A DNA stretch of 64,000 bases from an uncultured Eubacteriales bacterium (GTDB taxonomy: Bacteria > Bacillota > Clostridia > TANB77 > UBA1234), in assembly GCA_964400015.1 (NCBI GenBank), contig CAYNRR010000001.1:113275-177274 (forward strand), written 5' to 3'. Below the pieces are notes generated by a model. The model worked only from the letters and a program-made list of their open reading frames with translations. It searched no databases and was not told where the DNA came from. This document shows positions 15,291 to 58,117 of the stretch, piece by piece (within the stretch, counting starts at the first letter, position 1; each line of letters starts with the position of its first letter). Both the position numbers and the translations under genes were made by a program.

Positions 15291-15585
15291 CTATTCTCGC
15301 TAAATAAATTATATTTATTATTTTTTATCAAATCAACATCACACACGCGCGTATGTATGAATATATGTAGGGTTGCAAAAATTTCTGTTTATTTTATTCT
15401 TACGGAAGTATTACCTTTATTTATATTTTTTCTGAAGCGAGCTTCACATATTAAATTTTAATTTATCTTTAATTACAAAGTAATTACAAACGGCGTAATA
15501 GTTTTGTAACAAATTATAAAAACACTTATTCCCCTAGAACTTTAGAAACTCATATATTTTTTATATGGACCATTTTTTATTCTCA

Positions 15586-15640
15586 CACATTTTCCTAACG
15601 ACTTTTTAAAGAACTCGCACATTTTCCTAACGACTTTTTA
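15586..15640 (-). promoter_or_regulatory. Two 23-bp perfect direct repeats (TAAAAAGTCGTTAGGAAAATGTG on the minus strand) spaced 32 bp apart in the giant gene 1 upstream region; a candidate regulator-binding site
   Basis: Exact repeats at 15586-15608 and 15618-15640, about 400 bp upstream of the gene 1 start. Confidence 0.35.
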
Positions 15641-15682
15641 CATTTTTTGTATTTTTGATATTTTTTCGCAGATATATTGCAT

Positions 15683-15720
15683 ACAAAAAATCCCACTCTG
15701 CTTTCAGAGTGAGATTTGAC
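15683..15720 (-). terminator. Rho-independent terminator after trpS
   Basis: Stem TCCCACTCTG / CAGAGTGAGA (one mismatch) followed by a T-run on the minus strand. Confidence 0.55.
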
Positions 15721-15807
15721 TTGGTTTTACCTTATATTCATTTCAGCCTTTTATCTTTTATTTATTTTCCCTTTAATTAGTTTTTCCTTTTACTGGGAAA
15801 AAAGAGA

Positions 15808-15833
15808 CATTTAACGGACGTCCCTAGTGTCTC
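15808..15833 (-). repeat. Copy 2 of the 26-nt motif; it overlaps the trpS stop codon
   Basis: ACATTTAACGGACGTCCCTAGTGT is identical to copy 1. CAC-TAG supplies the ...LRH* end of trpS. Confidence 0.8.
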
Positions 15834-16810
15834 AAGCCGATTTTATTTTTCATCAATTCGTACTTTGCTTTTGCTATTTTTCTTGATGCTTCCATTCCGT
15901 CATTTAAGATTTTATCTAGTTCGTCGCTATTTATTAGTTCGTTATATCTTGTTTGGATAGCTTCAAACTTTTCTATAACTACATCTGCAACGGCTTGCTT
16001 GAATGTGCCGTAGTTTGCATCTGCAAATTTTGCAACTACTTCTTCTTTTGTTTCTCCTGTCATGCTTGTATAAATATTTATTAAATTACTTATTCCTGGT
16101 TGATTTTCAGGATCATAATTTACTTTGCCTATTGAGTCTGTTACTGCTGAGTTTATTTTTTTACGAATTGTTTTTACATCGTCTAAAATTCTTATAACAC
16201 CTTTTTGACTTTCTGATGATTTACTCATTTTTTTGTTTGGTTCTTGTAAGTCCATTATTTTTGTACCAGATTCTCTTATAAGTGGTTCTGGTACTACAAA
16301 TGTTTCACCATACTTTTTGTTAAATCTTATTGCTATATCTCTAGCAATTTCAACATGTTGTTTTTGGTCGATACCAACAGGAACATATTTAGTATCATAT
16401 GCTAAGATATCTGCTGCCATAAGTACTGGATATGTAAATAGTCCTGATGTGAAATTTGCATGCTTTGAACTTTTATCCTTAAACTGTGTCATTCTGCTAA
16501 GTTCTCCAAAGTATGTATTACACTCAAGCATCCATGATATATTTGCATGATATTCATTGTCCGATTGTAAAAATATCATATTCTTTTCTGGATCAATTCC
16601 ACAAGCTATATAAATTGCAAGCAATTGTTTTATATTTTGTGCTAGTGTATCGCTATCTATCGGAACTGTTATAGCGTGCATATCTGCAATAAATACAATC
16701 GATTTATATTTTTCTTGGTTTTCAACCATTTGTTTAATAGCACCTATATAATTTCCTAGTGTTATTATGCCCGTAGGTTGTAAACCTGTTAACATTATTT
16801 CCTTTCCCAT
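15824..16810 (-). CDS. trpS: Tryptophan--tRNA ligase
   Basis: Class I aaRS with the TrpRS N-terminal motif LTGLQPTG..TLGNYIG and KMSKS. GGAGG RBS. Confidence 0.85.
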   Translation of the reverse strand: MGKEIMLTGLQPTGIITLGNYIGAIKQMVENQEKYKSIVFIADMHAITVPIDSDTLAQNIKQLLAIYIACGIDPEKNMIFLQSDNEYHANISWMLECNTYFGELSRMTQFKDKSSKHANFTSGLFTYPVLMAADILAYDTKYVPVGIDQKQHVEIARDIAIRFNKKYGETFVVPEPLIRESGTKIMDLQEPNKKMSKSSESQKGVIRILDDVKTIRKKINSAVTDSIGKVNYDPENQPGISNLINIYTSMTGETKEEVVAKFADANYGTFKQAVADVVIEKFEAIQTRYNELINSDELDKILNDGMEASRKIAKAKYELMKNKIGLRH

Positions 16811-16832
16811 AAAAAACCTCCTATATACAGTT

Positions 16833-17585
16833 TTATATTCTATAAAAGTTTTTCGCGTTATTTAATGTGATTTCAGCCAAAGTTTCAAGTGACATTTCTC
16901 TCAAATCTGCAACTTTTTGTGCTGTATAAACCACGTAAGCTGCTTCATTTCTTTCACCTCTATGTGGTTCTGGAGTAAGATATGGTGCGTCTGTTTCAAT
17001 AAGTAACCTATCTGCTGGAACTATCTTTGCCACTTCTGTTAATGAACGTGCATTTTTAAAAGTGACTGGTCCTGCAATCGATACGTAGGCTCCTAACTTT
17101 AATACTTCTTTTAAAACTTCTACACTTGAAGAAAAACAGTGCATTACAAAGCCATTTTCAATCACATTGTTTTTCAAAATTTCAAGCATATCCATATCTG
17201 CATCTCTACTATGAATTACCACTGGTTTTCCTAATTCATTGGCTATTTTTATTTGTTTAACAAATAACCTTTTTTGACGTTCCTTATCGCCGCCCCAGTG
17301 ATAATCTAAACCTATCTCGCCAATTGCAACAACTTTTGGATCTTTCGCAAGTTCATATATAAAATCAAAATTTACATATTCATCGATATTTTCTGGATGC
17401 AATCCGACAGTTGCATAAACTCCATCATACTTATTTGCATCTTTAACAGCTTCACGCGAAGTAAATTCATTGTAACCAATAGTAGTCATGAACATAACTT
17501 GATTTTTGTTAGCATTTGCAACAATTTCATCACGTATTCCATTATATTGTTCATCCATCAAATGCGTATGTGAATCAAAAAACAT
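16833..17585 (-). CDS. tatD: TatD family metal-dependent DNase/hydrolase
   Basis: MFFDSHTHL...GEIGLDYHW...ETDAPYL motifs. Confidence 0.8.
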   Translation of the reverse strand: MFFDSHTHLMDEQYNGIRDEIVANANKNQVMFMTTIGYNEFTSREAVKDANKYDGVYATVGLHPENIDEYVNFDFIYELAKDPKVVAIGEIGLDYHWGGDKERQKRLFVKQIKIANELGKPVVIHSRDADMDMLEILKNNVIENGFVMHCFSSSVEVLKEVLKLGAYVSIAGPVTFKNARSLTEVAKIVPADRLLIETDAPYLTPEPHRGERNEAAYVVYTAQKVADLREMSLETLAEITLNNAKNFYRI

Positions 17586-17621
17586 CAAGATTATTTCACT
17601 CCTCTCATATTATCAACATTA

Positions 17622-19640: not shown

Positions 19641-19673
19641 GAATATAATCCCTCTTTCTATATATACTCTATT

Positions 19674-20063: not shown

Positions 20064-20118
20064 ACTTTCACCTCCTCATAACTAGTTAGAAATTATATCA
20101 TCAAAAGCACAATTTGTC

Positions 20119-20145
20119 CATTTTTTAAAATATATAGTTCATTTT
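20119..20145. repeat. Left copy of a 27-bp perfect direct repeat, CATTTTTTAAAATATATAGTTCATTTT, bracketing the toxIN unit
   Basis: Exact match to 20923..20949. Confidence 0.85.
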
Positions 20146-20173
20146 AAAATTTGTTCGCACCAGTCTTTTTACA

Positions 20174-20674
20174 TTATTTGTCATTTCTTTCTTTTATGTA
20201 TTCTAAGCACTTCTTTTCCAATATTTCAAAATTACATATATTAAATTTTTCTCTAGTCCTTTTATTCAGACCCAATTTATATACCATATTAGCTAATTTT
20301 TTTATTTTTTCCACATTTAAATTACAATATTTTAATTCTTTCATTAACAGGTTTCTATATTTCTCGTTTTCCTTTGAAAAGTCTTTTTGGCTTAAGTATT
20401 CTATTGGACATGGAAACATGAATGAAAATCTAAGAGAAGAAATTGCTTTTATTTGATTTGTCTTTTTATCTTTTTCTTTTATCAAAAATACTGTATGAGC
20501 TTTTTTGTTATATGAAGATACTGGAGCAAAATAATTAAAATTGTTAATTGTGAGAACTATTCCACAAAAAAATTTCTTATGTTTTTCATAATCTATATCT
20601 GGTATTTTATCATCTGCATTTTCTTTTAAATATTTTATATATTCACTATCTACTTCATAAAATTTTAATTTCAA
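20174..20674 (-). CDS. toxN: Type III toxin-antitoxin ToxN/AbiQ-family endoribonuclease toxin
   Basis: (M/L)KLKFYEVDSEYIKYLKE...FCGIVLTINNFNYFAPVSSYNKKAH aligns closely with the ToxN/AbiQ N-terminus. TTG start with an AGGAAG RBS. Confidence 0.8.
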   Translation of the reverse strand: MKLKFYEVDSEYIKYLKENADDKIPDIDYEKHKKFFCGIVLTINNFNYFAPVSSYNKKAHTVFLIKEKDKKTNQIKAISSLRFSFMFPCPIEYLSQKDFSKENEKYRNLLMKELKYCNLNVEKIKKLANMVYKLGLNKRTREKFNICNFEILEKKCLEYIKERNDK

Positions 20675-20687
20675 ATCTAACTTCCTT

Positions 20688-20730
20688 TCAAAAATAAAAA
20701 TAGGGAGCTAAAACATACGTTTTAACCCCC
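20688..20730 (-). terminator. Hairpin plus T-run between the ToxI-like repeats and toxN (attenuator-like)
   Basis: On the minus strand, GGGGGTTAAAAC-gtat-GTTTTAGCTCCC is followed by TATTTTTATTTTTG. Confidence 0.45.
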
Positions 20731-20745: not shown

Positions 20746-20868
20746 TTGTTGTGAGCTGCGAAACACTCGAATATATCGCTCGCACTTATTATGGGCTGCG
20801 AAACACCCAAATATATAGCTCGCCATTTATTATGAGTAGCGAAACACTCGGATTACTTTAAAGTATCC
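20746..20868 (-). ncRNA. toxI: ToxI-like antitoxin RNA: about 2.7 tandem 41-nt repeats
   Basis: Tandem imperfect repeats (plus strand ..GCTGCGAAACAC(T/C)C.AATATATCGCTCGC.. with period 41) lie immediately upstream of toxN. This is the canonical type III toxin-antitoxin arrangement. Confidence 0.65.
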
Positions 20869-32826: not shown

Positions 32827-33197
32827 TTTTTCACCTATTTTTACCTTTCTTTGATTTTTCTTGATGTCCTTTAACCCTTGGGAATACTTAATTTTATTCG
32901 GCTTTTTGTGATTTTATTCCTCTTTAAAAATGTTACTTATAGTCTACATTTTTTAAAATCATTTTTCAGCTTATTACTTAATCATTTTTCAAATTATTTT
33001 TTATCACTTTTCCCGTTCGGCTCCCTTTTTAAAGCGAACATAAAGTGTACATAATTTGAACGCATTATCGAACATTTTTTGACTTTATATGGCTTTTTTA
33101 CAATTTTTCGAAAAAAATTTTATTCCTGCAAAGCCTACGCGTTAGGCTGTTTTACATAATTTTCTTACATATCTTTCCATAATTTTACTTAATTATC

Positions 33198-33283: not shown

Positions 33284-33526
33284 ATGAAATCAACTGGCAT
33301 AGTTAGAAAAGTAGATGAGCTAGGAAGAATCGTGTTACCAATCGAATTAAGAAGAACTTTAGGTATTGATATTAAAGATTCTATCGAAATTTACGTTGAT
33401 AATTCTACAATCGTATTAAAAAAATATGAACCTACTTGCATTTTCTGTGGCGAATCTGAAAATGTAGTAACTCATAAGGATAAAAATGTTTGCAAAAAAT
33501 GTTTAGAAGAAATTAAAAGTTTATAA
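33284..33526 (+). CDS. abrB: AbrB-family transition-state regulator (clostridial type with a C-terminal Cys cluster)
   Basis: MKSTGIVRKVDELGRIVLPIELRRTLGI (SpoVT/AbrB swapped-hairpin) plus C-terminal CIFCG...CKKC. Confidence 0.85.
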   Translation: MKSTGIVRKVDELGRIVLPIELRRTLGIDIKDSIEIYVDNSTIVLKKYEPTCIFCGESENVVTHKDKNVCKKCLEEIKSL

Positions 33527-48700: not shown

Positions 48701-51700
48701 AATGGATTTGCTCCCATGCTTGCAACTTGTACAGGTATTGTTAAAATACCTGTCATGTTTTTAGTATCTGCTAATGCAAAATCTCCTATTGCTTTTAGTT
48801 GTGTTGGTAATGTAATTGTTGTAATTGCAGTACCTCTAAAAGCATTGTTTCCTATGCTTGTTACGGTTGAGTCAATACTAATTTCAGTAATTTTTGAAGT
48901 ATATGAATTCCATGGTGTATCTGCTGTTGTAAAGTCTTTCATTTCTCCCATACCTGTTATTAGTAATTGGTATTTTGTATTGTCTTCGTTGTTTATTAAG
49001 TATGCCCAAACATTATCTACTCCTGCATTTTTTGAAATATTCCATGCTTGTTTTAATGATGCAACTTCGTAGTGCATTCCATCAATTTCTTCGTGATAAT
49101 TGTATATTGCTGTGTTGTTTGGTGTCACTACGTTTGTTTTATCTACTGCATTTATTCCACCTTTTATTAAACCATCATAGAAAACTATATTTGAGCCATC
49201 AGTATATACCCCATAACCTTCACCAATGATTGTTACTAAGTTATCGTTTATAATTCCATCATCTGTACCAATAGTTAATATGGCGTTATCAGATATATAT
49301 ATAGCTGATGTGTATGTTGCTCCACCGTTATCTACGGCACTAATAGTTCCACCATTTACATTTAAAGTACCACCATTTACATGCATATATAGAGCAATTG
49401 TATAAAGACCATCTTCCATAGTTGTATCACGGTTTATTGCAATAGTTCCACCATTTACATTTATTGTGCCACCATAATCTAATATTGTACTTTGTATGAT
49501 TCCAACATTTTCAGCACTTACTGTACTTGTTAACGTACCTGAATTTATATTTGTAACAGCTCCATAATTATTAAATAAAATTTCATACTCTCCCGTTCTT
49601 TCACTTACATTTAATTCTATTGTCGCTGTTTCTATATTTAGTTCTCTGTCATTTTGAATTAAGTTAATGTCGTTTCCAACAAGTGATCCAGCACCAGTTA
49701 TATTAAGTACGCCGTAGTTTACTATTCCTCTTTCATTTTTTGTTAGAGCGTATGTACTTAAATCTAATGTAATATTTTTGTTTGTTGGAATTATTGCATT
49801 TACAACATCTGTGCAATCTCTCATAACTTCAACTGTACCTGTTGTAGTAATTGATTCGATTGCAGATTCTAATGTTGAGTAATATTTTTCTCCAACACGA
49901 TAATTTCCTAAAGCAATTGCTATAGTTCTTGTTTGTGTATCTACTACTGTTGTTTCATTTGCTTTATTTGTATATTTCAATGTGTAAGTAATTGTTTTGT
50001 CACCTAGTGTGCTTGTATCTATTGGTAATCCTGCTGTTTCAACTGTGTAACCTAAATCGTTGTAATTTGTAGCGTTTGTGCTATCCCAATCAAATACTGT
50101 TACTCCAGCGTCTACATATTCAGTACCTGCTTCCATTTTTGCTGGGTTATCCCCTAATAAGCTCATGAAAGGCTTAATCTTTTCTGCACCTAGCAATGAA
50201 ATATATGTGCTGTTTGCTTCATACAATGCTTCATCAGAAGTCGTTGGCACGTAAAGAATTGCTTTTTTATCAGATAAGCTGTTATCTGTTGCAATTTGCA
50301 TTAAATCGCTTTCACTCCTTACACTACGTAAAGAAATTATTCTTTCAAGTTTTGTGTTGTTAAGGAAAATGTATTTACCATCAAGTCTAGTAAATTTTTC
50401 ACCTAGTATTACAGTTCTTAAATTTGTACAGTTAGATATTAAAGCAGTTGTATCTGTAAGTGCTTTGCCTGTATCTGCCCACTTATACGCACCTGTAACG
50501 CCATCTAATGCAGAAGTGTCAAAGCTCGATAAATCTAAGAATGTTAAACTTCTACAGTTGTCAAACATTGATGCCATACACTTAGCAGACGAAGTATCGA
50601 AACTTGTAACATTTAATTCCGTTAGAGAATAGCATCCCTTGAACATATGATCAAAATTCGTAACTTTAGATGTATTAAACATAGATACATCTACGCTCTT
50701 TAGTGATTGACAATCTGCAAACATTTCGGCCATATTTGTTATTTTACTTGTATCGAATTGATTGCCTAAATCTAACTCTGTTAAAGCTTTACAGTTATAG
50801 AAAATATGATACATGTTTGTTACATTGCTTGTATTGAACTGAGTTCCCAAATTTAATGTTTCTATCGATGTACAACTTGCGAACATATAACTCATATCTG
50901 TTACTTTACTTGTATCAAATTTTTCTCCCAAATCTATTGCTGACAATAATGTACATCCTCTGAACATAAGTCTTGTAGTAGTAAGTGCTCTTGTGTCAAA
51001 TTGTTTTCCTAAATCTAATGTTGTTAATGAGCTACAATTTTGTAACATGTTACTCATATTCTTTACTTTTATTGTATTAAAGTTTTCACCTAAATTTAAT
51101 TTTGTTAATGAACCACAAGAATAAAACATAGCAGACATACTTGTTACATTGCTTGTATCAAAGTTCGTACCTAAGTTTAATTCTTTTAGTGCACTACAAC
51201 CTGAAAACATTGATTCCATCAATGTTACATTGCTTGTATCAAATCTAGATATGTCTAATGTCTTTAATTTTTTACAATTTCTAAACATTCCAAACATGTT
51301 AGTTGCATTGTTTGTTGTTAAATATTCTATGTTTTTTATCTCTGTCAAATTTGAATATCCATCAAATAACATACACGTATATTTAGCATTTATTGTATTA
51401 GTTGCAACAAAATATTGTGCATAGCATTGTGTATCGCCACTCATTGTTGATGGTACTAAGTATGATGTTACTGTATCTGGTGCACTTGTTGAAGAAACAT
51501 CCCAACTAACAGTAGCATTTGATGCTGCTGTGTCTGTGAATATTACTTTTGTTATAAGGTCAGGTGTATATTCTGTTTTTCCTGCTCTATATGCACCTAT
51601 TACATATTTGTTTGTAATGTATCCATCAATTCCTTCTCTTTCCATCAACTCTATTTTTACTTCTGCATATACACTTTCTGTTTCTATTGGTTGTACTACG

Positions 51701-53541
51701 CTTAGTGCTGCTACGTCTGATGTTTTTTTGTAATCGGCAATTGATGAATTCCATATTACGCATCTTAATTCAAATCCATCTGCACAGTCACCTGATGTCA
51801 TTTTGCTTGTATCCATTGTTAATTTTGCTGTGTTATATCCTGTTGCAATTGATGATGTTACATCTTCCCAGTAGATGTTATCTCCTGATTTGTATTGCCA
51901 TTGGTATTTGTTTGCACCTTTTGCTGTTATTTCAAAAGTTGCTTTTTCGCCATAGTTTATTTTTTGTGTTTCTGGTTGCTTTGTATATTCTAATTCAAAT
52001 TTTGCTGCTTTTATTGAAATGTCGCCTTCTGCTACGGATACAGTAACTATGTCTGATTTTACCGCATCGTGTTCTTTGTAATAATTGTTTCCTACTAAGC
52101 AACGATATTGATAATCTGTGTTACTATATAATCTTGTTTTTGTTGTGAATGTTGACTTCTTTAGTGGTTTTTCTGTTGTTGAATTTGATGGTGTTGATGT
52201 GCTTGAACTACCTTGAGTTGATGTTGCATCTTTCCAGTAGTCATTTTCACTTTCTCTGTATTGCCATGTAAATGTTAAGTTTGTTCCCATTGCCACTACG
52301 CTAAACTTAGCAGTTCCACTTTGAACTTTTACTTTAGTTAAATCTAAAGTTGGTTGTTCCATGATTATTGGAATTTCTCCTACAGATATACTTGTGGCTG
52401 GTGTTAATGATAGTGCCGCTATATCTGATGAAACTCTTTGTTCTTCTGTAAAATATGTGTTACCAACTAAACATCTATATGTGTATTCTTCCATTACTGG
52501 ATATGTTGATACGCTAAGTGTTGCTGATGTTGAACTTGAGCTTACATTTTTCCAATATGTATTTTCGTTTTCTCTATATTGCCATTGGTAAGTTGTTGCA
52601 TTTTCTGCTACTACTTTGAATGTAGCAGTATTTCCTACTATTACTTTTTGTGTTGCTGGTTGTGTTGTTATGCTTGGTGCAAGCGCTGTTGTAACTGTTA
52701 TTGCTATATCTTCATCAACACTTGAGATATTGCATACTTTACCTCTAACATTTCCTAGTGTTGTGATTGCACTATCTCCTGATGCAAGTGTTGATTCTAT
52801 GCTTGCTATACCGTAATTGTTGTTTGGAACAATATTAAAGTTTAATGCTGTTCCTTCTGCTACTGTTGTGTTTCCTACTATTTCTTCTCCGTTTGTATCA
52901 AACACTTTGTAGTTTTCGCCGTCAAATGTTATTTTTCTTGTATTTACTGTGATGATTATATATGTAGAGAAACTGCCTGTTGTAAATTCTATTTCTTCTG
53001 CTGTTAATTTGCTTATTGGCAATATCTCATAGTTTTCGTTGTTCATAATATGCATAAGTGCATATGTTTTTGAATCGTCTATGTCAAGGTTCATGTCTAA
53101 GTTTGAAAGTTTTACTTTTACTTTTTGCCCATACGCAGTTGGTTGATATTTTAGGTTTTCATTTGTTACATCGATATCGAATGCGTCTACTACTTGTTCT
53201 GGTAAAATATCTTTTTTATAGCTTTGTGCTAATGATACTGCGTCTTCTTTATTTAGTTTAGCAACTTCTACTTGCGAATTTTTGATTAGTACACCTGTGA
53301 CTTGAACTTTTTCATTTGTAGAAGTTTGTTCCGATTCTATCTCATCATATTCTACGTAGTTTGAGAAAGGAAGCTTTTCACTACACAAGTCACAAATCAT
53401 ATCGATGTCACTATCGATATGTTCGCAAGATATTAACTTATTTTTTTCAGACTTTCTTATAAAGCCTGCTCCTATTCCAGCCGTGGCTACCAGCACCACT
53501 ATGCTCATTAAAATTAAGATAATCTTGTTCTTTTTCATCAT
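33709..53541 (-). CDS. Giant (6,610 aa) multidomain surface protein: Ig-like domains, DUF285/BspA-type repeats, LRR_5 (BspA-like) repeats and beta-helix regions
   Basis: Single uninterrupted ORF. Its N-terminal ~290 aa are near-identical to giant gene 1. It contains Ig-like domains with a QWQYR motif, three DUF285 arrays (..FDTSNVT.M..MF..C.SL..L), several arrays of FxxxxxLxxIxLPxxLxxIGxxAF (LRR_5), parallel beta-helix-like Gly/Asn-rich repeats, and SbsA-type Ig domains. Its start codon is only 28 bp from the DGR RT stop codon. Confidence 0.8.
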   Translation of the reverse strand: MMKKNKIILILMSIVVLVATAGIGAGFIRKSEKNKLISCEHIDSDIDMICDLCSEKLPFSNYVEYDEIESEQTSTNEKVQVTGVLIKNSQVEVAKLNKEDAVSLAQSYKKDILPEQVVDAFDIDVTNENLKYQPTAYGQKVKVKLSNLDMNLDIDDSKTYALMHIMNNENYEILPISKLTAEEIEFTTGSFSTYIIITVNTRKITFDGENYKVFDTNGEEIVGNTTVAEGTALNFNIVPNNNYGIASIESTLASGDSAITTLGNVRGKVCNISSVDEDIAITVTTALAPSITTQPATQKVIVGNTATFKVVAENATTYQWQYRENENTYWKNVSSSSTSATLSVSTYPVMEEYTYRCLVGNTYFTEEQRVSSDIAALSLTPATSISVGEIPIIMEQPTLDLTKVKVQSGTAKFSVVAMGTNLTFTWQYRESENDYWKDATSTQGSSSTSTPSNSTTEKPLKKSTFTTKTRLYSNTDYQYRCLVGNNYYKEHDAVKSDIVTVSVAEGDISIKAAKFELEYTKQPETQKINYGEKATFEITAKGANKYQWQYKSGDNIYWEDVTSSIATGYNTAKLTMDTSKMTSGDCADGFELRCVIWNSSIADYKKTSDVAALSVVQPIETESVYAEVKIELMEREGIDGYITNKYVIGAYRAGKTEYTPDLITKVIFTDTAASNATVSWDVSSTSAPDTVTSYLVPSTMSGDTQCYAQYFVATNTINAKYTCMLFDGYSNLTEIKNIEYLTTNNATNMFGMFRNCKKLKTLDISRFDTSNVTLMESMFSGCSALKELNLGTNFDTSNVTSMSAMFYSCGSLTKLNLGENFNTIKVKNMSNMLQNCSSLTTLDLGKQFDTRALTTTRLMFRGCTLLSAIDLGEKFDTSKVTDMSYMFASCTSIETLNLGTQFNTSNVTNMYHIFYNCKALTELDLGNQFDTSKITNMAEMFADCQSLKSVDVSMFNTSKVTNFDHMFKGCYSLTELNVTSFDTSSAKCMASMFDNCRSLTFLDLSSFDTSALDGVTGAYKWADTGKALTDTTALISNCTNLRTVILGEKFTRLDGKYIFLNNTKLERIISLRSVRSESDLMQIATDNSLSDKKAILYVPTTSDEALYEANSTYISLLGAEKIKPFMSLLGDNPAKMEAGTEYVDAGVTVFDWDSTNATNYNDLGYTVETAGLPIDTSTLGDKTITYTLKYTNKANETTVVDTQTRTIAIALGNYRVGEKYYSTLESAIESITTTGTVEVMRDCTDVVNAIIPTNKNITLDLSTYALTKNERGIVNYGVLNITGAGSLVGNDINLIQNDRELNIETATIELNVSERTGEYEILFNNYGAVTNINSGTLTSTVSAENVGIIQSTILDYGGTINVNGGTIAINRDTTMEDGLYTIALYMHVNGGTLNVNGGTISAVDNGGATYTSAIYISDNAILTIGTDDGIINDNLVTIIGEGYGVYTDGSNIVFYDGLIKGGINAVDKTNVVTPNNTAIYNYHEEIDGMHYEVASLKQAWNISKNAGVDNVWAYLINNEDNTKYQLLITGMGEMKDFTTADTPWNSYTSKITEISIDSTVTSIGNNAFRGTAITTITLPTQLKAIGDFALADTKNMTGILTIPVQVASMGANPFMGSNITGFSIATGNTNYKVENIALLTYDGKTVVSYPAGNGTATHIINANVENIADYAYAGAKNIAEVYLKSTSIIEIGTEAFTNLQANSVIYTMSKDVADKFVSGTHYTAENTKIYYPPMIDAQPTDVSVNAGHKATFTVTATAGNPADINYQWQYRTSATGTWTNVTDAQGTNGTTATFTTTGLTQAMNGYEYRCVLSNSAYPNAKMTQEKLVGTISNSAKVTVTASNYSVDGVMFDTLAEAYASITGTKGTIKVEADNTDTSELIVESGKDITINTNGHTITLTGKRIANLGTLTINGDGVIKLADDNTTLEYLISTYGTLNIEEVTLINNMNCVLHLKAGILNIKAGQITLNDGNAAIIIDEEQATVNVTGGKIISETNGIYCNLYKTKEFIINISGGTIESNGYAIRTDEKQTGIVNISGGELKSKGSYAIRNYSTSNTVNITGGTLISEYGEAINNPSTGKIVIGSNDETVSTTTPSIIGKTYAITSPNGFGFYDGILKGRTNAYSGDITSIADGYDVYKSEETINGKKYETAYLAPYLMIRNYSLDATSKPYATYVIGAEEAGYTQFTSDKIKSVTFVENTNVPAGATSWDVSEAQDESILAWVKDDNLYIGSDNKVLISPLGLSMLFADYTNCISINNFEIVDVSRATSMYGMFKNIKSMQTFDWSNIDTSKITKTDYTFAECTGLKELDLRNFNTTNVTSMKSMFENCTNLETIVLGENFTKISGANMFAGDTSLSRIIAQRAESMTTTASVGFDTATNAILYVPNQTAKVNYEATTPYETALGSDRIRTILELNGDNPTYKIKGESYTEKGATVAGFDSANATNYTKYGYSVTVDKTSIDTSEVCTQTITYTLNYTENGTTKEVMNITREIVIKGAPELMERETATGAMLGAYRANEATTYNASQVTKVIFTNKIPTNYVDSWDVSLVNGHKTVMSYIVPSELKDGTQYYDQYIVASARITAAYGAKLFYGYSNMTEIDNIEYISTQDATSFESMFSGCTSLEELDLRSFETSNVTVMAEMFNNCSSLLSLDVTNFNTSEVTAMYGMFTNCSSLTKLDLSSFDTSNAGEPQQLRGRGPLFSMFQNCTNLETLVLGEKFNTLNGYYMFNGCENLQKIISNRSVETSSDMMAINSVGIGVRNTPATLYVSSQTAEALYEANSSYINQFTADRIKSLLSLIGDERVKVNLGGSYTEYGYKIADEMPETLEDENIGDYRVTITGVEDIDFSTMGVYDVVYTLEYKNPYDENATYTTFMSLTRKVQVGGIEATVKVEGKNEYDSTLTAKITSSTIPEENYTYQWYICDIKSTNGGTPIEGATNKTYTVGKGLVGKYIYVEVTGNYGEYEEAKFYDLADEANNVSDTIAKKVVTLPKDDNSLVYNGEEQEFIPDGYNEKYMEVTGNTGTDAGTYKAEYILTDPDDCEWDKGEEITEEVIWTIAKKSIAAIWDGPFTFTYNGTEQGPEVHTESVVDGEVVTLTKYIKVDAGNYIAKTRIASVTGGRANANNYVLINETASFKINKATPEFVVTPTQLNITQGNTGILNYTSNVESTITVESADTSVATAGNIDLTGKTIEIISKGTGSTIITVTLDESINYSAATATVVVGTLSANYTDGTNYYETLASAFAGAKDGAIIIQLNEVTENTVAVVESSKTLTLKLNGNNSTIKVNDFITVKGNLTIEGLGTISQSTTDGTSTSSLIVVDGGTLTLKGAVEVNGSNTAITSKGIVNVSENVKITGITGIVNKGKLTFGVAGDVTQRDLVEVIATQTAIENVGEFYWYDGQITANAATIYSGVEPILEESIAICSEINGNKETRYVVRDTEAPVIENIISQTDWVKNSQTLEIIARDNIKVTGYALTETNEMPALDSNVWNTANTFTVTENKSYFVWVKDAAGNVVSKEFVAKWICLEIWDTTGESGTDTRAILKLDGTLLFEVVNGTIGYIKDYTVSNAPWSNDTRVTSVVVSEGIAKIGEYGLSNMIVADSITLPRSLTEIAESALYRTNNYSSINISGNTHFTIDELSIYDISKTTLYSYSKKNTEIDFTIPDTVKTLVTGLFYENGTLVEIRTNKNITSVGEDAFEGFKADVYYYTSCETMKEYALANSEEANFIAIDDVKPVIESFVINNDDISTISQDVTLTIIAKDDVKVSNVFISEQYYTDEEIRNKANSEWISYNGTEYPYTVSSGTGTKTVYVWVKDSSGNISSSVNDSIFYGDIEVKLLNQAEIVQYVDTTGKDYYKYIESVQGGYTSKSNVTVNVTGSVNHKVSGEYEIKYSVMLNDIEMQTLTRTVNVIENSWTGAKGTTQDEFTYVIHTNGKYAKITGYTGEFTRVLRIPASVTLDGTEYKVIDVESIGANRIVETVELPDTLINIGNRAFAEFNELENVDIPDAVMSIDENAFASAGLMNGIFVKLGSNFREIKAEAFKNARISDIDFGSMVKYLGDNAFANVRVPENFVLKLPASLDALGLDTFESTKIYDITVEEGNNKFIIDDDGISLLTNDEEMLVLYPIASDFEEYDIPQGVTTIGRKAFKDAEKLKIVNVSSSANTVNEYAFEGATNLEKVNYSELLTNIGEYAFLNSGVTSFAFNRNLNNISKGAFENSKLTDVSIHSKITSIKAEAFKGITTLKSVVIEGKPSISISAFENCTSLKTAVFTNNTGIVTIADKTSIPDSTTIYVPTSMEVIYESDSIYSQYENCTEKIQPILELIGNQEIVWTINNEYVEDGVKLAGETLKTSANSSTVKGLELVIDGTVDPSKSLRNTIVYIAKYNGVEVDRIERIVDIQDNIAPVIESVTTDSDWVSPYQTFVVKATDNIAVTAYIITTENTVPSVDDSRWQTSEKLKVDANQIWYIFAKDAAGNISTRYQVISTWVAAGKWDVSKNQDNSVHGIITLDGKTLIIKGNGETKNYAEKETPWYEDYKDTVTTITVEDGVTSIGDYLLGYMPNVLTITLPNTLEKVIDGAFAYTNNFENIELGNNTHLVYENGTLYNADKTELYVHTTKHTNDYEIPSNVQKICAAAFANSIYISRLDLTNVKEIQSYAFNGCTHFANQYIPKTLNKIGEKVFAGTRGPIYYYSSCDAMVEYVKAYGSETEFIEIDDIKPVIKNFVINNNEVSTDNENVTLNIDATDNKAISKIIIETTLSENITSGDPRWTDYAGEKEVAYTLTGGNGIKILYVWVMDTSGNICEQYATDTIILGANDFAFEHNDTIVQYVDRTGKGYYEFNEEVQGNYSIETEGVTVTVNANIDVTTVGEKQIVYSLDYYGTPAGEFYKTVDVIEDSWGTTIFSENGFDFVKHTDKNYAKIVKYSGSTNVVFPEIVTDGGIAYRVIEIESLDENPVVDVNTTTVELPTTIIHVGKNAFVNCTKLESINIEYNVLTIEENAFKNTGLKALDTNKNVRVIKEGAFENAHITTLNNSQLLKSIETRAFRNALDTERLTILASIDNIAEGAFAGSLIDKIVLDDENVTSKFKVHEDSLLLDTTTGTLIQYATGKGTISLECPSIGIKKIGEGAFMNATNIQKLSIKDNYTMVGREAFRNTGLTIFELNSNIQAIPEYLFADCTSLSTVILENARSIKANAFENTSALKQLVIFTSADYVCDIDNVSLLNENTKVYVLEKEMYKESASWTAIADRIYSIFRLNGDENITIEAGTEYIDSGVYAIDVLFASTSTYPDIDNITVEINSNVNTAKLGNQTVNYILKLNGNARTELSRNVKVQDTTPPVIEKIITLDVAQAQREKFEIIASDNHKIAGYAITQTDTQPILDSDVWSTSNVVYATQNGEWFVWVKDEAGNVAMETVKAENICAAIWDVGVVPNKVFASISFDNTIIFEGEGAVRYFAKEDIPWKDYLEKVNKIEVREGVTELQKYTLADMTNVGEISLPKSLTKVETSTFAKTNNFYEITFPNGTETFIYDGYTLYSMDKSILYVHSNRDQNITYTIDENVKTIGEYAFANNSNIVTITTTSNPTLLEGAFNNNNTLEKINGEIGGTRIESYVFENCSKLSGIEMSKDVTYIGSYAFSNCNMITEIEMILCTELKTLDHHAFANLKNLQTLKVYRTIANILADEENVRNVFEKMGSNFPENAKVYYYEGCNAMEEYAKYYPDINVDFIMIDEIGPRLMSLKVTNRENGTYSAGTVLEITAIMSENFLTIKGTIPELSIEFGSGSVIKLQPNGVDGRNIKYTYTITKDDLGQLECVSFDGELYDELDNKSEFKGPKTIDGNIYARSGVLLESDFEENKYFPRLSDATEYITSTGKLTMLLNEDAMKVATFKANTLVTLDINGKKVSLNCDQSEDTRLIKNNGTLTVIDSGAGELSTISTGLDACAIENEGTLKLVSGVIRAQTLKTGLAYGVLNKGEVNITGGTISAVNTEGTSYGMYNEGTLKMENGTITSSTIEGKTYALYVANGNVNVTGGQITSRLLSGNKGTTTGVYIEKGTYVSGKNDESISKESPIIYSTKDGLRNVGGKLEFYDGVIEGEAYRSLYTNEVKVVPGYALIKKLVGDREKAYLDFDVSKPIIELKNLTPDWTNDKVTIQAKFIDEESGVQNAYYGETEVTLVNNMITVEVEQNGTYTFKAIDFAGNTAEESITITNIDKESPTFENLSYTAMANQKEVTLTVTVKDNASGVRGYLLSKYEVEPTKWKELNKIMTKVELDISVTSNGKYYLYAIDDAGNIGKYNSVIDITDVDASAPVIKSLEIVDNDRGFANSSVVMIKVDAEDDTGVKEILISNKLLTNNQVLDSEEWVPYTEDVIWTLPIGDGEKTIYVWVKDKANRISKTSTATTKLLAQYIGNNGENSTSFKFLSKDANYNYGKELTADDLYIKVKDTTGAETYTGDYGEGIVLAKTPVVYGPIQEGSQAMSGRYYYVTAQNIAGEGIVYLCFRDTVEVDKAGNKIATAKLELETDVVVELNKPVITVSSTTVTVTDADNHSMNVIKIDGKTIKLSNGSITKSDLKAKYDIELVSGTKLETIDKCGNTAVYTIN

Positions 53542-53569
53542 TAGTTAGTCATCCTTTCAGTTTAAAAGT

Positions 53570-54517
53570 TTAAAACCTTTCACTAAGTAAAATATTGTAG
53601 TTTAAAACTGTGTTGCACATTCCGTTTAAAGCTATCTTTCCTATTTGGTAGAGATATAATCTCCTTTTTATTTTTCTTTTTGCCGTTCTGTATTTACTGT
53701 ATCTTCCATACGAATTTCTTCCCAGGAAAATGAAATTGTCGGTGTCTTTATAAATTCTTGTTTTTTGATTTAATACTAATTTTTCTTTTTCTAAAAATTT
53801 TTCAATTTTTATCAAGCATTCTTTTAAATATTCTTTCGATTGATGCATTACTAATGCATCATCTTGATACCTAATGTAATACTTTATTTTTAGCTCTTCT
53901 TTTATATAATGATCTAAATCATTAAGATAAAAAATTGCTAATATTTGAGATGTCATATTGCCTATCCCTAATCCATGTTCTTCATTATCTATAATTCTAT
54001 AGATAATATCTAAAGCATCTTTGTCTTTTATTTTTTTACTAACTTTATCTTTTAGTATTTCTTTGTCGATACTGAAAAAGAATTTTCTTATATCGAGTTT
54101 TAAAATATAGTAATTACCATATTTATTTTTGCAAATTTTTGAATAGTTTCTAAAATATCTAAGCCCTGCACCCGTTCCTTTATTTGGTCTACTTGCAACG
54201 TTTGTTTCTATAAGTGACGGTACAAGTGCCGGATATAGTATGTATCTGCTCACTAAATGATTTACTAATTTATCTTCCATACTTTGGCTTTCTATTCTTC
54301 TTTCTTTTGGTTCATAGATAGTAAATACATATGGCTTGCTAGGTACGTATTTTTTGCTTTTTAATATTTCGTACACTCTAAAAATATTTCTACATTTGTG
54401 TTCTTTATATCTTGCAACTTTTCTTTTGTTTTTTGTATTTCTGCAAATTTCATCGTAAACTGTCATTATATTTTCTAAATTATATATATCTTTATACAGA
54501 TTACTTTTTCTTTTCAT
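53570..54517 (-). CDS. Diversity-generating retroelement reverse transcriptase
   Basis: RT motifs including YQDD and the DGR-specific GIGNMTSQILAIFYLNDLDHYIKEE (I/LGxxxSQ). 315 aa. GGAGG RBS. Confidence 0.85.
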   Translation of the reverse strand: MKRKSNLYKDIYNLENIMTVYDEICRNTKNKRKVARYKEHKCRNIFRVYEILKSKKYVPSKPYVFTIYEPKERRIESQSMEDKLVNHLVSRYILYPALVPSLIETNVASRPNKGTGAGLRYFRNYSKICKNKYGNYYILKLDIRKFFFSIDKEILKDKVSKKIKDKDALDIIYRIIDNEEHGLGIGNMTSQILAIFYLNDLDHYIKEELKIKYYIRYQDDALVMHQSKEYLKECLIKIEKFLEKEKLVLNQKTRIYKDTDNFIFLGRNSYGRYSKYRTAKRKIKRRLYLYQIGKIALNGMCNTVLNYNILLSERF

Positions 54518-54731
54518 CTCGCCTCCGAAAAAGTAGCACAGGTGAAATTTTATTTCACCTTTTGCACCACTTAAAAATAGTACTAGTATTTACTCCCTTT
54601 CGCTTGTGCTACTAACAAATAAACACATCTATTTTTTATTCTTACTTAAATTGCTTTAAGTAATGGATAACAGTTTGTTTCTAAGATTCTCGTATATCAC
54701 CTTTAGTAGATATACCCACATTTGATAGAAG

Positions 54732-54830
54732 CTACAGGGCGCACCCCATTCGTGTTGTTGTTGTTGTTGTTCACGTTGCCGTTGTTATTCACGTACCACA
54801 AGTTGTTAGAGTTATAAGCAGAGGCTAGCC
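54732..54830 (-). repeat. DGR template repeat (TR), 99 bp
   Basis: 99 bp aligned to the VR at 55810..55908 with 14 mismatches. On the coding (minus) strand the TR carries runs of AAC codons (six consecutive) that align with varied codons in the VR. Confidence 0.85.
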
Positions 54831-54860
54831 TTTTCAACCGTACCCTATGTAATACCCTTT

Positions 54861-55235
54861 TTAAGGTTTATTACCAATTTCTTTTTTGTATGAATTTATC
54901 CATCCTGCATAGTACCTAACGATATTATCTAGTGACTCTCCAAATCTAAAATATCTTTTTGCATTTATGATTTCTTTGTCATAACATTGATTGATTAAAA
55001 AATCTAAAAGTTTTATGTGTGCAACTCCTTTTTCTTGCAAATCTCTTCGTTTATTTTCATCAATTGTTATATTGGCTTCATATGTTATGTACAACAAATC
55101 GTATGCACAGTCTTTTATTTTTCTTTTTAATTCAATTTCTTTGTTTGGGAAATTGACTAAATATTTATCTATTGCTGTAATTAAATCTTTTATCATTTCT
55201 ATTATTTTAAATTTTTCAGTTGGCTTATAATTCAT
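54861..55235 (-). CDS. avd: DGR accessory variability determinant (Avd; four-helix-bundle family)
   Basis: About 124 aa, helical, with a basic patch. The position between target/VR and TR-RT is canonical. Similar to the 23S rRNA intervening-sequence four-helix-bundle protein family. Confidence 0.65.
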   Translation of the reverse strand: MNYKPTEKFKIIEMIKDLITAIDKYLVNFPNKEIELKRKIKDCAYDLLYITYEANITIDENKRRDLQEKGVAHIKLLDFLINQCYDKEIINAKRYFRFGESLDNIVRYYAGWINSYKKEIGNKP

Positions 55236-55665
55236 CAAATATTATCTCCTCTATATTTTGAATTTTCTTTTTTATTGTTGGAGAATTTATATTTTCAATT
55301 AAATAATTGTATATTGCATTTATTCTGTTTTTTATTGTTACATACTTATATGCTTTTTCATAAAGTGAAGTATATTCGTTTTTATCTTTATATTTCATTT
55401 CATGTGATACTTCATAATTTTGTGATTTTACTGTTACGATATAGCTTACTTTGTTATCTTCTAATAATTTTAAGTTTTTATTTAATCCTGCTTTTGGGAA
55501 ACCACATGTATTGTAACTATTTTCTAAGGTTTTAATTTGATACCCACATAAATATGATAGTATGTACGAATCTTTGCCATACACGTGATAAAATGCACCG
55601 ATTTGTATCAATATTATTGTTTCAGGATTTATTTGTTTCATTGTTTTTATCATGGTATCTTTCAT
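55225..55665 (-). CDS. MutS-domain-I-like (mismatch-binding-domain-like) small protein encoded inside the DGR cassette
   Basis: 146 aa. NPETIILIQIGAFYHVYGKDSYIL...NTCGFPKAGLNKNLKLLEDNKVSYIVTVKSQ aligns with MutS domain I (E. coli [21 protein letters not shown]...[29 protein letters not shown]). The phenylalanine of the GxFxE motif is conserved, but the glutamate is replaced by histidine. Confidence 0.5.
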   Translation of the reverse strand: MKDTMIKTMKQINPETIILIQIGAFYHVYGKDSYILSYLCGYQIKTLENSYNTCGFPKAGLNKNLKLLEDNKVSYIVTVKSQNYEVSHEMKYKDKNEYTSLYEKAYKYVTIKNRINAIYNYLIENINSPTIKKKIQNIEEIIFDEL

Positions 55666-55738
55666 TTTATTCCCCCCATTTTTTGTTTTTTCTCCGTAAG
55701 CAGACCTTAGGCCTGCTCACGGACATACTGTTCAAGTT

Positions 55739-57172
55739 TTATTCCATATTTATATTCCATGCACCTATCATGTCTGTGCCTTCGGCTAGGACCTCAGACT
55801 TTAGAGAAACTACAGGGCGCACCCCATTCGCGTAGTAGCTGTTGCTGTACACGTAGCCGCTGCTATCCACGCACCACAAGTCGCGAGAGTTATAAGCAGA
55901 GGCTAGCCAGTAGTATGCGTAGTTGCCACTATTAGTAGCAGGTACAGCTAATAAGTCTTGATACTTAGCTGCTGTTACAGATGTACCAGATTTGGTGGTT
56001 GTATTCCCTGTTGGATCGTATACTTTATCCAAATCTTCTTTTGTCATTGCACGTACTTTTAAAGTACCTGCCTTTTTTTCTCCTGTAACAGTAGTTGTAG
56101 CTCCAGAATATTGTGTACTAGTATATGTAACTGTTGTATCTTGTGTATATGTTGCTGTATATTTATTAGTAAAAACTTCTGTTAATGTTTGAAAAGGATT
56201 AAATCCTGTTGTTCTATAGGTATTATCATCTGATGAAGAAAACGCTGTTGTTAAAAAATTTATAGCTAAATTTTTTATACTTGTAGTTGGATAACTATAA
56301 TGACGATAAGTTAAAGGTACACCAGCACTTACCAGGTTCACCGTTCCTGGTGCAGGATTTCCGTCTATATCTACATCTTTACTTAGAACTCTCCATCCTC
56401 TTCTTTTAGCAATGTAACTACTACCACCATTACTTGATACATTATCATAATAAACCGGATAATTTACGTAGTCCCCTATTTCTACTACTTCTGAAAGTTG
56501 TGGCAATGCACCTAAACTTGTTGTCCATACTGCATAAAGCGTTGCTGATGTTTCTGTTCCTATTTGTACTGCAGCAGGAATTATATCTCCTTGTCTGTAG
56601 CTTGGTGTTGTTGCGTTTTTGTCTGTGCTCCAACCTAAAAAGTAGTATCCCTCTCTTGTAGGTGTTTGACTTGTTACTACAAATGGTGCGCCGTGAACTC
56701 TTGTTGTTGCAAGACCTGTAGGCATTGTTGCATCTGTTGCATTTACATCGTATGTTACTGTTTGAGATACTGAGCTGTCATATATTATTGAAGTATTTCC
56801 GTTTGCATCTTTAAGTGCAAGGTATAGAGTATTTGTACCACTTAGGTTTGGAAGTGTCATTTCAATAACCTTGTTTGTTTCATAATCTTCCCAAGCTGTA
56901 ATTTTTTCAGTATTAGAAATTGGGCTTGTGCTTATGTAGTACTTAATCTCGTTATCTGCACACATATTGTCTGCTGCAAAAATTTGCACTTGAACTTTTG
57001 CTCTGTCTACGTAATTTACATTATTTACTTCTGTCGCTCCTATTATTTGAAGTCTGCCCCATGGAGCAACTACATCATTGTCGTAATAAAGGTTTTCTGC
57101 AAAAGCTATACTACTCATTCCAAGTATTAGCCCTGCTCCACAGCATAACTTTTTTAAATATTTTTTATTCAT
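55739..57172 (-). CDS. DGR target protein: secreted, with a Flg_new repeat and a C-terminal DUF1566-like C-type-lectin-fold domain carrying the VR
   Basis: Signal peptide MNKKYLKKLCCGAGLILGMSSIAFA, GYYFLGWSTDKN...LYAVW (Listeria/Bacteroides repeat), and C-terminal ...YYWLASAYNSRDLWCVDSSGYVYSNSYYANGVRPVVSL, in which the diversified codons lie. Confidence 0.8.
   Translation of the reverse strand: MNKKYLKKLCCGAGLILGMSSIAFAENLYYDNDVVAPWGRLQIIGATEVNNVNYVDRAKVQVQIFAADNMCADNEIKYYISTSPISNTEKITAWEDYETNKVIEMTLPNLSGTNTLYLALKDANGNTSIIYDSSVSQTVTYDVNATDATMPTGLATTRVHGAPFVVTSQTPTREGYYFLGWSTDKNATTPSYRQGDIIPAAVQIGTETSATLYAVWTTSLGALPQLSEVVEIGDYVNYPVYYDNVSSNGGSSYIAKRRGWRVLSKDVDIDGNPAPGTVNLVSAGVPLTYRHYSYPTTSIKNLAINFLTTAFSSSDDNTYRTTGFNPFQTLTEVFTNKYTATYTQDTTVTYTSTQYSGATTTVTGEKKAGTLKVRAMTKEDLDKVYDPTGNTTTKSGTSVTAAKYQDLLAVPATNSGNYAYYWLASAYNSRDLWCVDSSGYVYSNSYYANGVRPVVSLKSEVLAEGTDMIGAWNINME
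55810..55908 (-). repeat. DGR variable repeat (VR) inside the 3' end of the target gene
   Basis: See TR. The IMH-like GC-rich end GGGGTGCGCCCTGTAG is on the minus strand. Confidence 0.85.
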
Positions 57173-57192
57173 TAAAATTCTCCTCTCTTTAA

Positions 57193-57741
57193 CTAGTTGT
57201 CGTTATTTGCAATTTCTATTTTTACATCGCTGGCATAAGTAATATCTTCAAGCACATATGTTTTAAACTTGCTACTCTCTAGCCCTGCAAGGTCGGTTAA
57301 AATTCCACCAAAAACATCTTGTACTTCGCCACTTTCATTTAGTGCTTTAATACTCAAGCTTTCTGCTTTTGAATATTCTTCTGATGTATTTTTTACATCT
57401 GCTGTAAAAGTGCATTTGCCACTATCTATCTTGCCGATTTTCATGTTTGAAAACTCAACATTTCCAAGCTTTTGCACGCCAGAAACATTTACATACTCCA
57501 TTACTGTATCGTTGTTATCTAGTCTTCCTTGTATGCTACCCTCATACTCTGGAATGTTTTCATAGTCCTTATCTACAACATCGTCATCTCCGATTTCATC
57601 ACCAGAGCTAGTTTCTATTTTCTGCTCTTTTTTCCTCATCAAATCGTTAGAAGAACTTGAAAGAGTAAAAGCTTTTATAAACAGCAGTATTAACCCCATC
57701 ATTGCAGCCAGCAAACAAATGTAACCAATGTTTTTTTTCAT
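57193..57741 (-). CDS. Membrane-anchored hypothetical protein immediately upstream of, and likely co-transcribed with, the DGR target
   Basis: AAGGAG RBS then MKKNIGYICLLAAMMGLILLFI. The gap to the target gene start is 21 bp. Confidence 0.45.
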   Translation of the reverse strand: MKKNIGYICLLAAMMGLILLFIKAFTLSSSSNDLMRKKEQKIETSSGDEIGDDDVVDKDYENIPEYEGSIQGRLDNNDTVMEYVNVSGVQKLGNVEFSNMKIGKIDSGKCTFTADVKNTSEEYSKAESLSIKALNESGEVQDVFGGILTDLAGLESSKFKTYVLEDITYASDVKIEIANNDN

Positions 57742-58117
57742 TCTTCTCACTCCTTTCATCCAGAATAAATCATCTTGGCTTGATTATAGCTTTTTCGCCA
57801 CACCAATTCAACACGCGTATACGCGCGAAATATAATTATAGGTAGGGTTTGCGAGCTTCAGCAACTTGTTTTTACTTTACGGAAGATAGTTTCACGCAAA
57901 TTATTTGTGTTGCTATTTTACGTTTTATTAAGTTTAACTTACTTTTTTATTACACACCTGTTACAAGAGCAACAAACTGCGTGGCTGAAAGTCCTTTAAA
58001 ATATGGTTTCCGTAAGTGAAGAAGTATAAAAAAATAGAAAATGTACAGGAACTATCCTGCACATTTTCTATTTTTAGTTTTTATTACTTTTTAGGACTAT
58101 TAGTTTGTTTCATATTT

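Follow-up and report, generated by a model that had tools for sequence, protein, structure and literature searches.

A conserved, probably shared cis-regulatory region upstream of giant-adhesin operons and a diversity-generating retroelement in uncultured gut Clostridia

Diversity-generating retroelements (DGRs) are cassettes of a target gene, Avd, a template repeat (TR) and a reverse transcriptase (RT). The cwpV-type switch of C. difficile is an invertible promoter/leader switch of a clostridial surface protein. The published consensus of WalR (YycF/VicR), a response regulator of the OmpR/PhoB type, is TGTWAH-N5-TGTWAH (PMC9210968). Formation of Z-DNA from alternating purine/pyrimidine DNA under negative supercoiling is established (e.g. 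PMC2116181 and PMC8053131). Here two regions of a 64-kb stretch of DNA from an uncultured Eubacteriales bacterium (the whole stretch analysed, hereafter the window) were compared with one another and with these systems. Module A lies 5' of giant gene 1 and module B lies 5' of a DGR operon. A and B are probably paralogous copies of one conserved cis-regulatory region of ~220 bp through which both operons would be co-controlled. In a clade of uncultured gut Clostridia this region appears to serve giant BspA/DUF285 adhesin operons, some of which also carry a lectin-like DGR target and its DGR.

The operon behind B contains a canonical DGR, with a variable region (VR) at the C-terminal end of the target, a bAvd gene, a TR/VR pair differing at TR adenines and an RT. 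This DGR is genuine. It differs from described cassettes in that it lies inside a larger adhesin operon with an extra MutS_I-like gene. Furthermore, the module that precedes it also stands before RT-less operons (L010, L023) and before giant genes alone (L007-L009, L013), where L001-L023 are labels of loci from related genomes. The modules resemble the cwpV-type switch in that presumed regulatory DNA with short inverted repeats precedes a large surface-protein gene. By contrast, their repeats measure only 8 nt and flank neither the promoter nor a terminator, no recombinase is nearby, and a single orientation is found in all assemblies.

An earlier note on this DNA had reported four blocks shared by the two upstream regions, and all four are present at the coordinates it gave in A and B (Table 1). 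They were described as ordered, which does not hold since the last two are swapped. On the plus strand A reads CG tract, GTAGGG, TTACGGAAG, GCGAGCTTCA, and B reads CG tract, GTAGGG, GCGAGCTTCA (abutting GTAGGGTTTGC), TTACGGAAG. The 10-mer TGAAGCTCGC/GCGAGCTTCA is the most informative A-B block (22.8 bits), and its different site in A suggests a small rearrangement. Nor are the blocks set in otherwise unrelated AT-rich DNA, because A and B are weakly homologous and colinear over ~220 nt, with the TGTWAY hexamer array at one end and the -10 box at the other. Other gut Clostridia have homologous DNA over these ~220 nt in front of their orthologous operons, which bears out common descent, one of the two explanations offered earlier.

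The significance of the A-B similarity depends on the test, and the shuffle comparison that had been proposed as a check gave a split result. Strict Smith-Waterman alignment with blastn-like scores, which is blind to composition, gave 28 for A versus B and 23.9 ± 2.7 for shuffled sequences, no better than shuffles since 110/1000 of them reached 28. The lenient-gap alignment rose above its controls (z ~7; 0/500 shuffles as high), as did a composition-aware comparison of shared exact blocks (80 bits versus 8 ± 13; 1/2000 shuffles as high). With A as query, nhmmer found B at E = 1.5e-4 in the whole window. A profile built from other species only (L002, L007, L008 and L009) ranked A first (E 3.1e-4) and B second (E 8e-3) in the 64 kb, with no further match under E 0.7. 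The full profile recovered L022, which had been left out of the model, at E 9e-5. Across 249 kb of window and loci it matched only the upstream regions described here and a partial third copy in L007.

Conservation in related genomes, the absence of which had been named as a refutation, was found. A comparison of the N-terminal 330 aa of the giant proteins with 5.8 billion proteins gave only four clusters of homologues, each from gut metagenomes. Homologous operons of uncultured gut Clostridia, from at least four further lineages, are preceded by the architecture of A and B, and the upstream regions of L002/L010, L004/L008/L009/L013, L007, L015, L022 and L023 are colinear with both modules. 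Proteins of the aligned operons are 37-78% identical to those of the window. L002/L010/L011 have the order hypothetical protein (hyp), target, (MutS_I-Avd-RT), giant, with the RT cassette absent from L010. The full order seen behind B, hyp-target-MutS_I-Avd-RT-giant, is also found in L001, L002, L015 and L019, and a DGR is present in L022/L019. In L004, L007, L008, L009 and L013, which are metagenome-assembled genomes labelled uncultured Clostridia or Clostridiales UBA4698, the giant gene is directly behind the module. L015 encodes a small protein 78% identical to that of the window and has the PBP-MinC-AAA_14 neighbourhood of locus B. L023 is the positional equivalent of locus A and reads tryptophanyl-tRNA synthetase (TrpRS), module, hyp, target-like, giant, with RT absent.

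The third copy in L007 (5511..5591, minus strand) lies upstream of 4675..5388 (minus strand), which encodes a 237-aa protein with 44% identity to the window's DGR target over the N-terminal half of the latter. In other genomes, then, the module precedes whole operons, giant genes alone and one target-like gene alone. This distribution indicates that the module belongs to the giant/target gene family and not to the DGR. Operons of the hyp-target-like-giant type that lack the MutS_I/Avd/TR/RT cassette were observed at L010 7572..15460, L023 1407..6125 and L014 1..1027. Because relatives without the cassette exist, the DGR is a presence/absence insertion within an older adhesin operon, and because the RT-less versions use the same promoter region, the promoter predates the DGR.

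The octamer TTCCGTAA is invariant in 9/9 upstream regions compared and lies at about -100 to -105. Its distance to the -10 box is 94-96 nt in A, B, L015, L023, L022 and L002, and 85 nt in L004/L008/L009/L013 and L007, a shift of one helical turn. TGTWAY hexamers spaced 11 bp apart are found at about -170 to -215. Relative to TTCCGTAA, positions -104, -93, -81 and -70 (±2) are occupied in A, L002, L008/L009 and L007. The array of B is also found in L015 and L023. That of A is the sole four-hexamer phased array in the window (mean 0.37 in the shuffled window), and across ~203 kb (406 kb, both strands) such arrays are almost confined to the modules. Conservation of the remaining blocks is narrower. 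GCAA(A)CCCTAC, at about -75, and (A)AGCTCGC are limited to the sub-clade of the window, L015 and L023, where the counterparts of the B block TGAAGCTCGCAAACCCTAC are AAGCTCGCAAACCCTAC in L015 and AACTCGCAAACCCTAC in L023. The TGAAGCTCGC/GCGAGCTTCA block is not present in more distant species.

Each module ends in a predicted housekeeping-sigma promoter on the strand of the downstream genes. A -35/-10 pair occupies the aligned position in 8/8 aligned upstream regions, in keeping with the common promoter that had been suggested. The -10 element is TATAAT in 7/8 of these regions and AAAAAT in L023, and the -35 elements of relatives are TAGACA, TTGAAT or TTTACA, 16-17 nt 5' of the -10. In L015 and L023 a promoter occupies exactly the aligned position of that of B. 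The pair agrees with sigma-70/SigA promoters in hexamers, spacing, strand and conservation at the orthologous position, and a common predicted promoter for A and B is strongly supported. Intrinsic terminators of the upstream genes lie directly 5' of both modules, at 15717..15688 (A) and 58075..58030 (B).

These features suggest how the modules most likely work. One or more DNA-binding regulators would sit at the TTCCGTAA, hexamer and CG-tract sites along the same side of the helix and raise or lower RNA polymerase activity at the predicted promoter, with the hexamer array as the direct-repeat site of an OmpR/WalR-type response regulator. Under such control the two giant adhesins and the diversified protein would switch in concert. 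A cis-regulatory region conserved by descent makes co-regulation likely, and we reasonably infer that the diversified protein and the giant adhesins are co-regulated. The case is strengthened because giant gene 2 shares an operon with the DGR target and because the module elsewhere precedes giant genes alone and a target-like gene alone. A conserved cis-regulatory region before paralogous operons is a familiar kind of object; the CG tract, conserved in its alternation, is its sole unusual feature.

The resemblance to WalR operators is a lead to the regulator and not a finding. Exact matches to the 11-bp-spaced consensus occur on the gene strand at 15472..15488 (TGTAAT-N5-TGTAAT, A) and 57949..57965 (TGTAAC-N5-TGTAAT, B) and at the aligned place in L002, L004, L007-L010 and L013, with TGTTAC-N5-TGTTAC in L002 and L007-L010. 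The genes behind the modules also encode cell-surface proteins of a Firmicute. By contrast with WalR operators, no WalRK genes or cell-wall hydrolase targets are found at the modules, and no response-regulator gene was found in the window or loci.

Several observations, together with the strict Smith-Waterman score, weigh against shared control through these sites. In B, L015 and L023 only the last two hexamers (-81, -70) are present and the first two are missing. The two-hexamer WalR consensus is loose, with 5 exact matches in the window against 2.5 expected, and 6/100 shuffles reach 5. In the C. difficile study it had 29 intergenic matches (PMC9210968). The array, with its four to six hexamers, is dyad-symmetric, so that it is matched on both strands, and it lies >130 nt 5' of the -35 box, unusually far from the promoter. 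Inspection of the neighbouring genes revealed no transcription-factor gene conserved beside the loci; only an AAA_14/DUF4143 ATPase recurs (B, L015, L007). Finally, the third copy in L007 retains hexamers, TTTCCGTAG and a ACTAGACA..TATAAT promoter and is without the CG tract.

Two gene associations near the modules were observed. The AAA_14 + DUF4143 ATPase gene lies 5' of the module in the same orientation in the window (58118..59317, minus strand), L015 (7982..9181) and L007 (6937..8223), a placement that may be coincidental synteny or may mark a candidate DNA-binding partner. Downstream of giant gene 1 is a gene with a DUF3298/PdaC domain (1811..2626, minus strand), and a DUF3298 gene is paired with a gene for an extracytoplasmic function (ECF)-type sigma factor a few kb 5' of the module in L002 (67..1372) and L010 (2813..4118). 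This pair could be a lead to the regulator. An ECF-sigma promoter (TGAAAC ... CGTAA) was considered and rejected, as the spacing of its elements varies from 7 to >20 nt among lineages. SigD, TnrA/GlnR, SinR and cre sites were also considered for TTCCGTAA or the hexamers and dropped for wrong spacing or an unconserved match.

A CG-rich tract of 15-20 nt, in strict purine/pyrimidine alternation, is found in the modules at about -60 to -35. It starts 35-37, 46-48 or 57 nt past TTCCGTAA, i.e. in steps of ~10 nt. The tract of A is the longest alternating tract in the window and that of B is the window's most CpG-dense 20-mer. Six alternating tracts of at least 14 nt occur in the window, and the two longest and most GC-rich are those of modules A and B. 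In each related locus examined, the sole tract of this length sits at the module. The ACGCGCG motif and palindromes described earlier are present, but they are conserved only in alternation and CG-richness, not as sequence or dyad. The tract palindromes ACGCGCGT, CGCGTATACGCG, CACGCGTG and GCGTGCACGC differ in sequence, length and centre, and no dyad is common to the tracts of the lineages compared. A classical palindromic operator is perhaps not the best of the possible readings. The tract may instead be either a protein site with a degenerate purine/pyrimidine (RY) consensus or a supercoil-sensitive, Z-DNA-prone element.

The second of these possibilities is the alternative that survives best. 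The CG "palindromes" would be structural DNA that flips to Z-DNA or absorbs negative supercoils just 5' of the -35 box, so that the promoter would respond to supercoiling. Only the operator reading of the tract is challenged by this; a promoter region would remain the explanation for the rest of the module. The runs of alternating purine and pyrimidine, rich in CG steps, are of the sequence type expected of Z-DNA-forming elements, and they lie in an AT-rich genome where transcription-driven negative supercoils accumulate. Among lineages the tract sequence drifts (CGCGCGTATACGCGTGT, TACGCACGTATGCACGTGCG, GCGCACGTACACGCGTGT, ACGCGCATGCGTGCACGC, CATACATACGCGCGTGTGTG) while strict alternation is kept. 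Between L009 and L007 7/16 tract positions differ, all by transitions, and the transition:transversion ratio outside the tract is 22:28; for B and L023 the ratio is 4:0 inside and 27:54 outside, a contrast with some circularity, since alternation is what defines the tract, and so supporting evidence only. The same pattern could come from mutational bias (CpG deamination) rather than selection. The tracts are also short and broken by TA steps, which makes a B-Z transition in vivo uncertain, alternation is broken once in L002, and the third L007 copy persists with the tract gone. Known Z-DNA promoter tracts are mostly synthetic (CG)n or (TG)n inserts, whereas those of the modules are natural, short mixtures of CG, CA/TG and TA steps; a limited literature search found no natural bacterial precedent. 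With a protein recognising a degenerate RY pattern as the other candidate, we consider structural DNA unlikely, if worth keeping in view. The fuller proposal, that selection has acted on alternation and not on base identity to maintain a natural supercoil-absorbing Z-DNA-prone element, seems slightly less likely still.

It is also improbable that the blocks are relics, duplicated along with the operons and left without a role beyond the core promoter. The giant genes do recombine, as shown by 100% identity from -94 to about +620. Some blocks are limited to the sub-clade, and every known copy of the module precedes the same gene family, with none before an unrelated gene. Against this, conservation falls into islands: little or nothing varies in TTCCGTAA, the hexamers and the -10, whereas the spacers between them are saturated, with ~40-50% of positions outside the tract differing between clades. 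Spacings are held to ±2 nt or shifted by about one helical turn, which neutral decay does not give, and the proteins behind the modules are only 37-48% identical.

Long operons often use leader-encoded antitermination signals, and the blocks could in principle be transcribed, as riboswitch, small RNA or antitermination signal of a 5' leader. Inverted repeats able to form hairpins are present, e.g. GTTACAAGTT..AACTTGTAAC in L009 and TGAAGC-TC-GCTTCA in A. Yet all blocks are upstream of the conserved -35/-10 pair, and the terminators of the upstream genes come directly before the modules. Rfam gave no match at gathering score in the whole window, E-value scans of both intergenic regions gave only weak terminator-hairpin matches, and RNAalifold found 0 consensus pairs in the eight-sequence alignment. 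The leader-RNA reading was dropped on these results as very improbable.

Chance resemblance in AT-rich DNA, or a mobile or invertible element such as a miniature inverted-repeat transposable element (MITE) or phase-variation switch, is hardly credible: the strict A-B alignment is within shuffle range and several lineages have an inverted pair, TTACGGAA..TTCCGTAA, ~131-140 nt apart, but the cross-species profile matches and the composition-aware block test exclude chance, the 8-nt repeats enclose the hexamer array and leave the promoter outside, the neighbouring genes include no consistent recombinase or transposase, and the profile found no dispersed copies in the 249 kb, the third L007 copy also preceding a family member. 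The upstream partner of this pair, TTACGGAAA in B, has equivalents (TACGGCAA or TTCGGAAA) 131-140 nt upstream in L002 and L007-L009. It is not universal: A has only a weak form, and the corresponding bases of L023 belong to a terminator stem. A direct repeat of ~23 nt (TAAAAAGTCGTTAGGAAAATGTG, twice, 32 nt apart) was observed between the TrpRS terminator and A (15584..15638, minus-strand reading), and B has none.

The relevant genes of both loci are all on the minus strand. Giant gene 1 is preceded by the TrpRS gene (15824..16810). The start of hyp was placed at ATG 57741 because an identical 182-aa protein exists in NCBI. The earlier note was correct in placing a DGR target operon behind B, but its description was incomplete. 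Since no strong terminator or promoter was found from the B promoter to giant gene 2, B most likely drives hyp, target, DGR and giant gene 2 as one operon. Both A and B would so drive paralogous giant-adhesin operons. The 146-aa MutS domain I protein encoded between target and bAvd is kept in every DGR-bearing relative (L001, L002, L015, L019) and is an unusual DGR accessory gene. Both giant genes contain arrays of 81-nt (27-aa) repeats (7900..14100 and 45400..51600) that are 60-80% identical, with >40 copies in giant gene 1, and several longer repeat families are common to the two genes.

The two loci have exchanged sequence. Identity between giant genes 1 and 2 is 100% from 94 nt 5' of the ATG to about +620, beyond which they diverge, the identical block running from 15183..15276 and 53542..53635 on to about 14560 and 52920, respectively. 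This identity indicates recent gene conversion or recombination between the loci. The final 22 codons of the RT gene recur at 15211..15276, between the A promoter and giant gene 1. Locus B is their native place, as the C-terminal end of its RT can be aligned with the L002 and L019 RTs. After TrpRS, L023 (1..6126) has module, hyp, target-like and giant, and the window (4107..16810) has A and then giant gene 1. The RT fragment and the L023 arrangement suggest that a hyp-target(-DGR) segment was once present at locus A and has been lost, and that the 5' end of giant gene 1 was then copied from, or homogenised with, locus B. The similarity of modules A and B is outside the recent identical block and is much older.

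Table 1. Positions of the modules, their blocks and the genes behind them in the window
Feature	Position	Strand	Remarks
A hexamers TGTTAC-N5-TATTAC-N6-TGTAAT-N5-TGTAAT	15472..15511	-	-104, -93, -81, -70 from TTCCGTAA
B hexamers TGTAAC-N5-TGTAAT-N5-AGTAAG-N5-CTTAAT	57927..57965	-	first two at -81, -70 from TTCCGTAA
GCGAGCTTCA	15437..15446 and 57851..57860		sole two copies in window, one mismatch allowed
A: TGAAGCTCGC (previously given as GCGAGCTTCA)	15437..15446	-	within small dyad TGAAGC-TC-GCTTCA
TTACGGAAG	15400..15408 and 57877..57885		only exact copies in window
A: CTTCCGTAA (previously given as TTACGGAAG)	15400..15408	-	94 nt 5' of -10
B: CTTCCGTAA	57877..57885	-	96 nt 5' of -10
B: inverted copy TTACGGAAA	58007..58015	-	~131 nt before CTTCCGTAA
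GTAGGGTT(T)GC	15367..15376 and 57842..57852		
A: GCAACCCTAC (previously given as GTAGGGTTGC)	15367..15376	-	kept only in sub-clade A, B, L015, L023
B: TGAAGCTCGCAAACCCTAC	57842..57860	-	GCGAGCTTCA and GTAGGGTTTGC share 2 nt (57851..57852)
A tract CATACATACGCGCGTGTGTG	15340..15359	-	20 nt strictly alternating pyrimidine/purine; contains ACGCGCGT; about -58 to -39
B tract CGCGCGTATACGCGTGT	57811..57827	-	17 nt alternating; contains CGCGTATACGCG; about -51 to -35, abuts -35 box
Palindrome ACGCGCGT	15345..15352		A
Palindrome CGCGTATACGCG	57814..57825		B
A promoter, predicted, sigma-70-type	15308..15336	-	TTGATT-17-TATAAT, 10/12 matches; for giant gene 1
B promoter, predicted, sigma-70-type	57783..57811	-	TTGAAT-17-TATAAT, 10/12 matches; for hyp-target-DGR-giant gene 2 operon
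Giant gene 1	4107..15182	-	3691 aa; DUF285, BspA-type leucine-rich repeat, Listeria-Bacteroides repeat domains
Giant gene 1 5' leader	15183..15276	-	100% identical to 53542..53635
Operon behind B	33709..57741	-	hyp, target, MutS_I-like, bAvd, TR, RT, giant gene 2
hyp	ATG 57741	-	182-aa hypothetical protein; first gene behind B
DGR target	55739..57172	-	C-terminal VR 55795..55908
MutS_I-like gene	55225..55665	-	
bAvd	54861..55238	-	bAvd domain
TR	54717..54830	-	TR/VR mismatches fall at TR adenines
RT	53570..54517	-	RVT_1 domain
Giant gene 2	33709..53541	-	6610 aa; begins 28 nt past RT gene

Other features were observed in the window. A ToxN-family toxin gene (20174..20674, minus strand) has a 40-nt tandem repeat (2.4 copies) just upstream at 20752..20847, arranged as in type III toxin-antitoxin systems whose RNA antitoxin is made of repeats. 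At 59798..61503 (plus strand) an ORF of 250 aa without a Pfam match overlaps the downstream gene (60544..61503) for an AbiEii-type nucleotidyltransferase toxin, and the two are probably an AbiE-like pair. Just past giant gene 2 and convergent with it, 33284..33523 (plus strand) encodes an AbrB/MazE-fold protein (PF04014) of 80 aa with a zinc-ribbon-like C-terminal part. Near this gene is a hairpin, AGCCTA-ACGCG-TAGGCT (33128..33145), with partial likeness to the GTAGGGTTTGC block.

The TGTWAY hexamers, TTCCGTAA and the CG tract are defined short sites that can be taken into assays in a clade without a cultured, genetically tractable member. If the tract does adopt Z-DNA, expression of the giant adhesins and the DGR operon would be tied to the local superhelical state, e.g. 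to growth phase or the transcription of neighbours. As a structural sensor it would be a rare natural bacterial case in which DNA conformation is conserved rather than sequence. More broadly, two giant BspA/DUF285 adhesins and a hypervariable DGR target, all large surface investments, are linked to one inherited control region, and they probably form a single regulatory unit.

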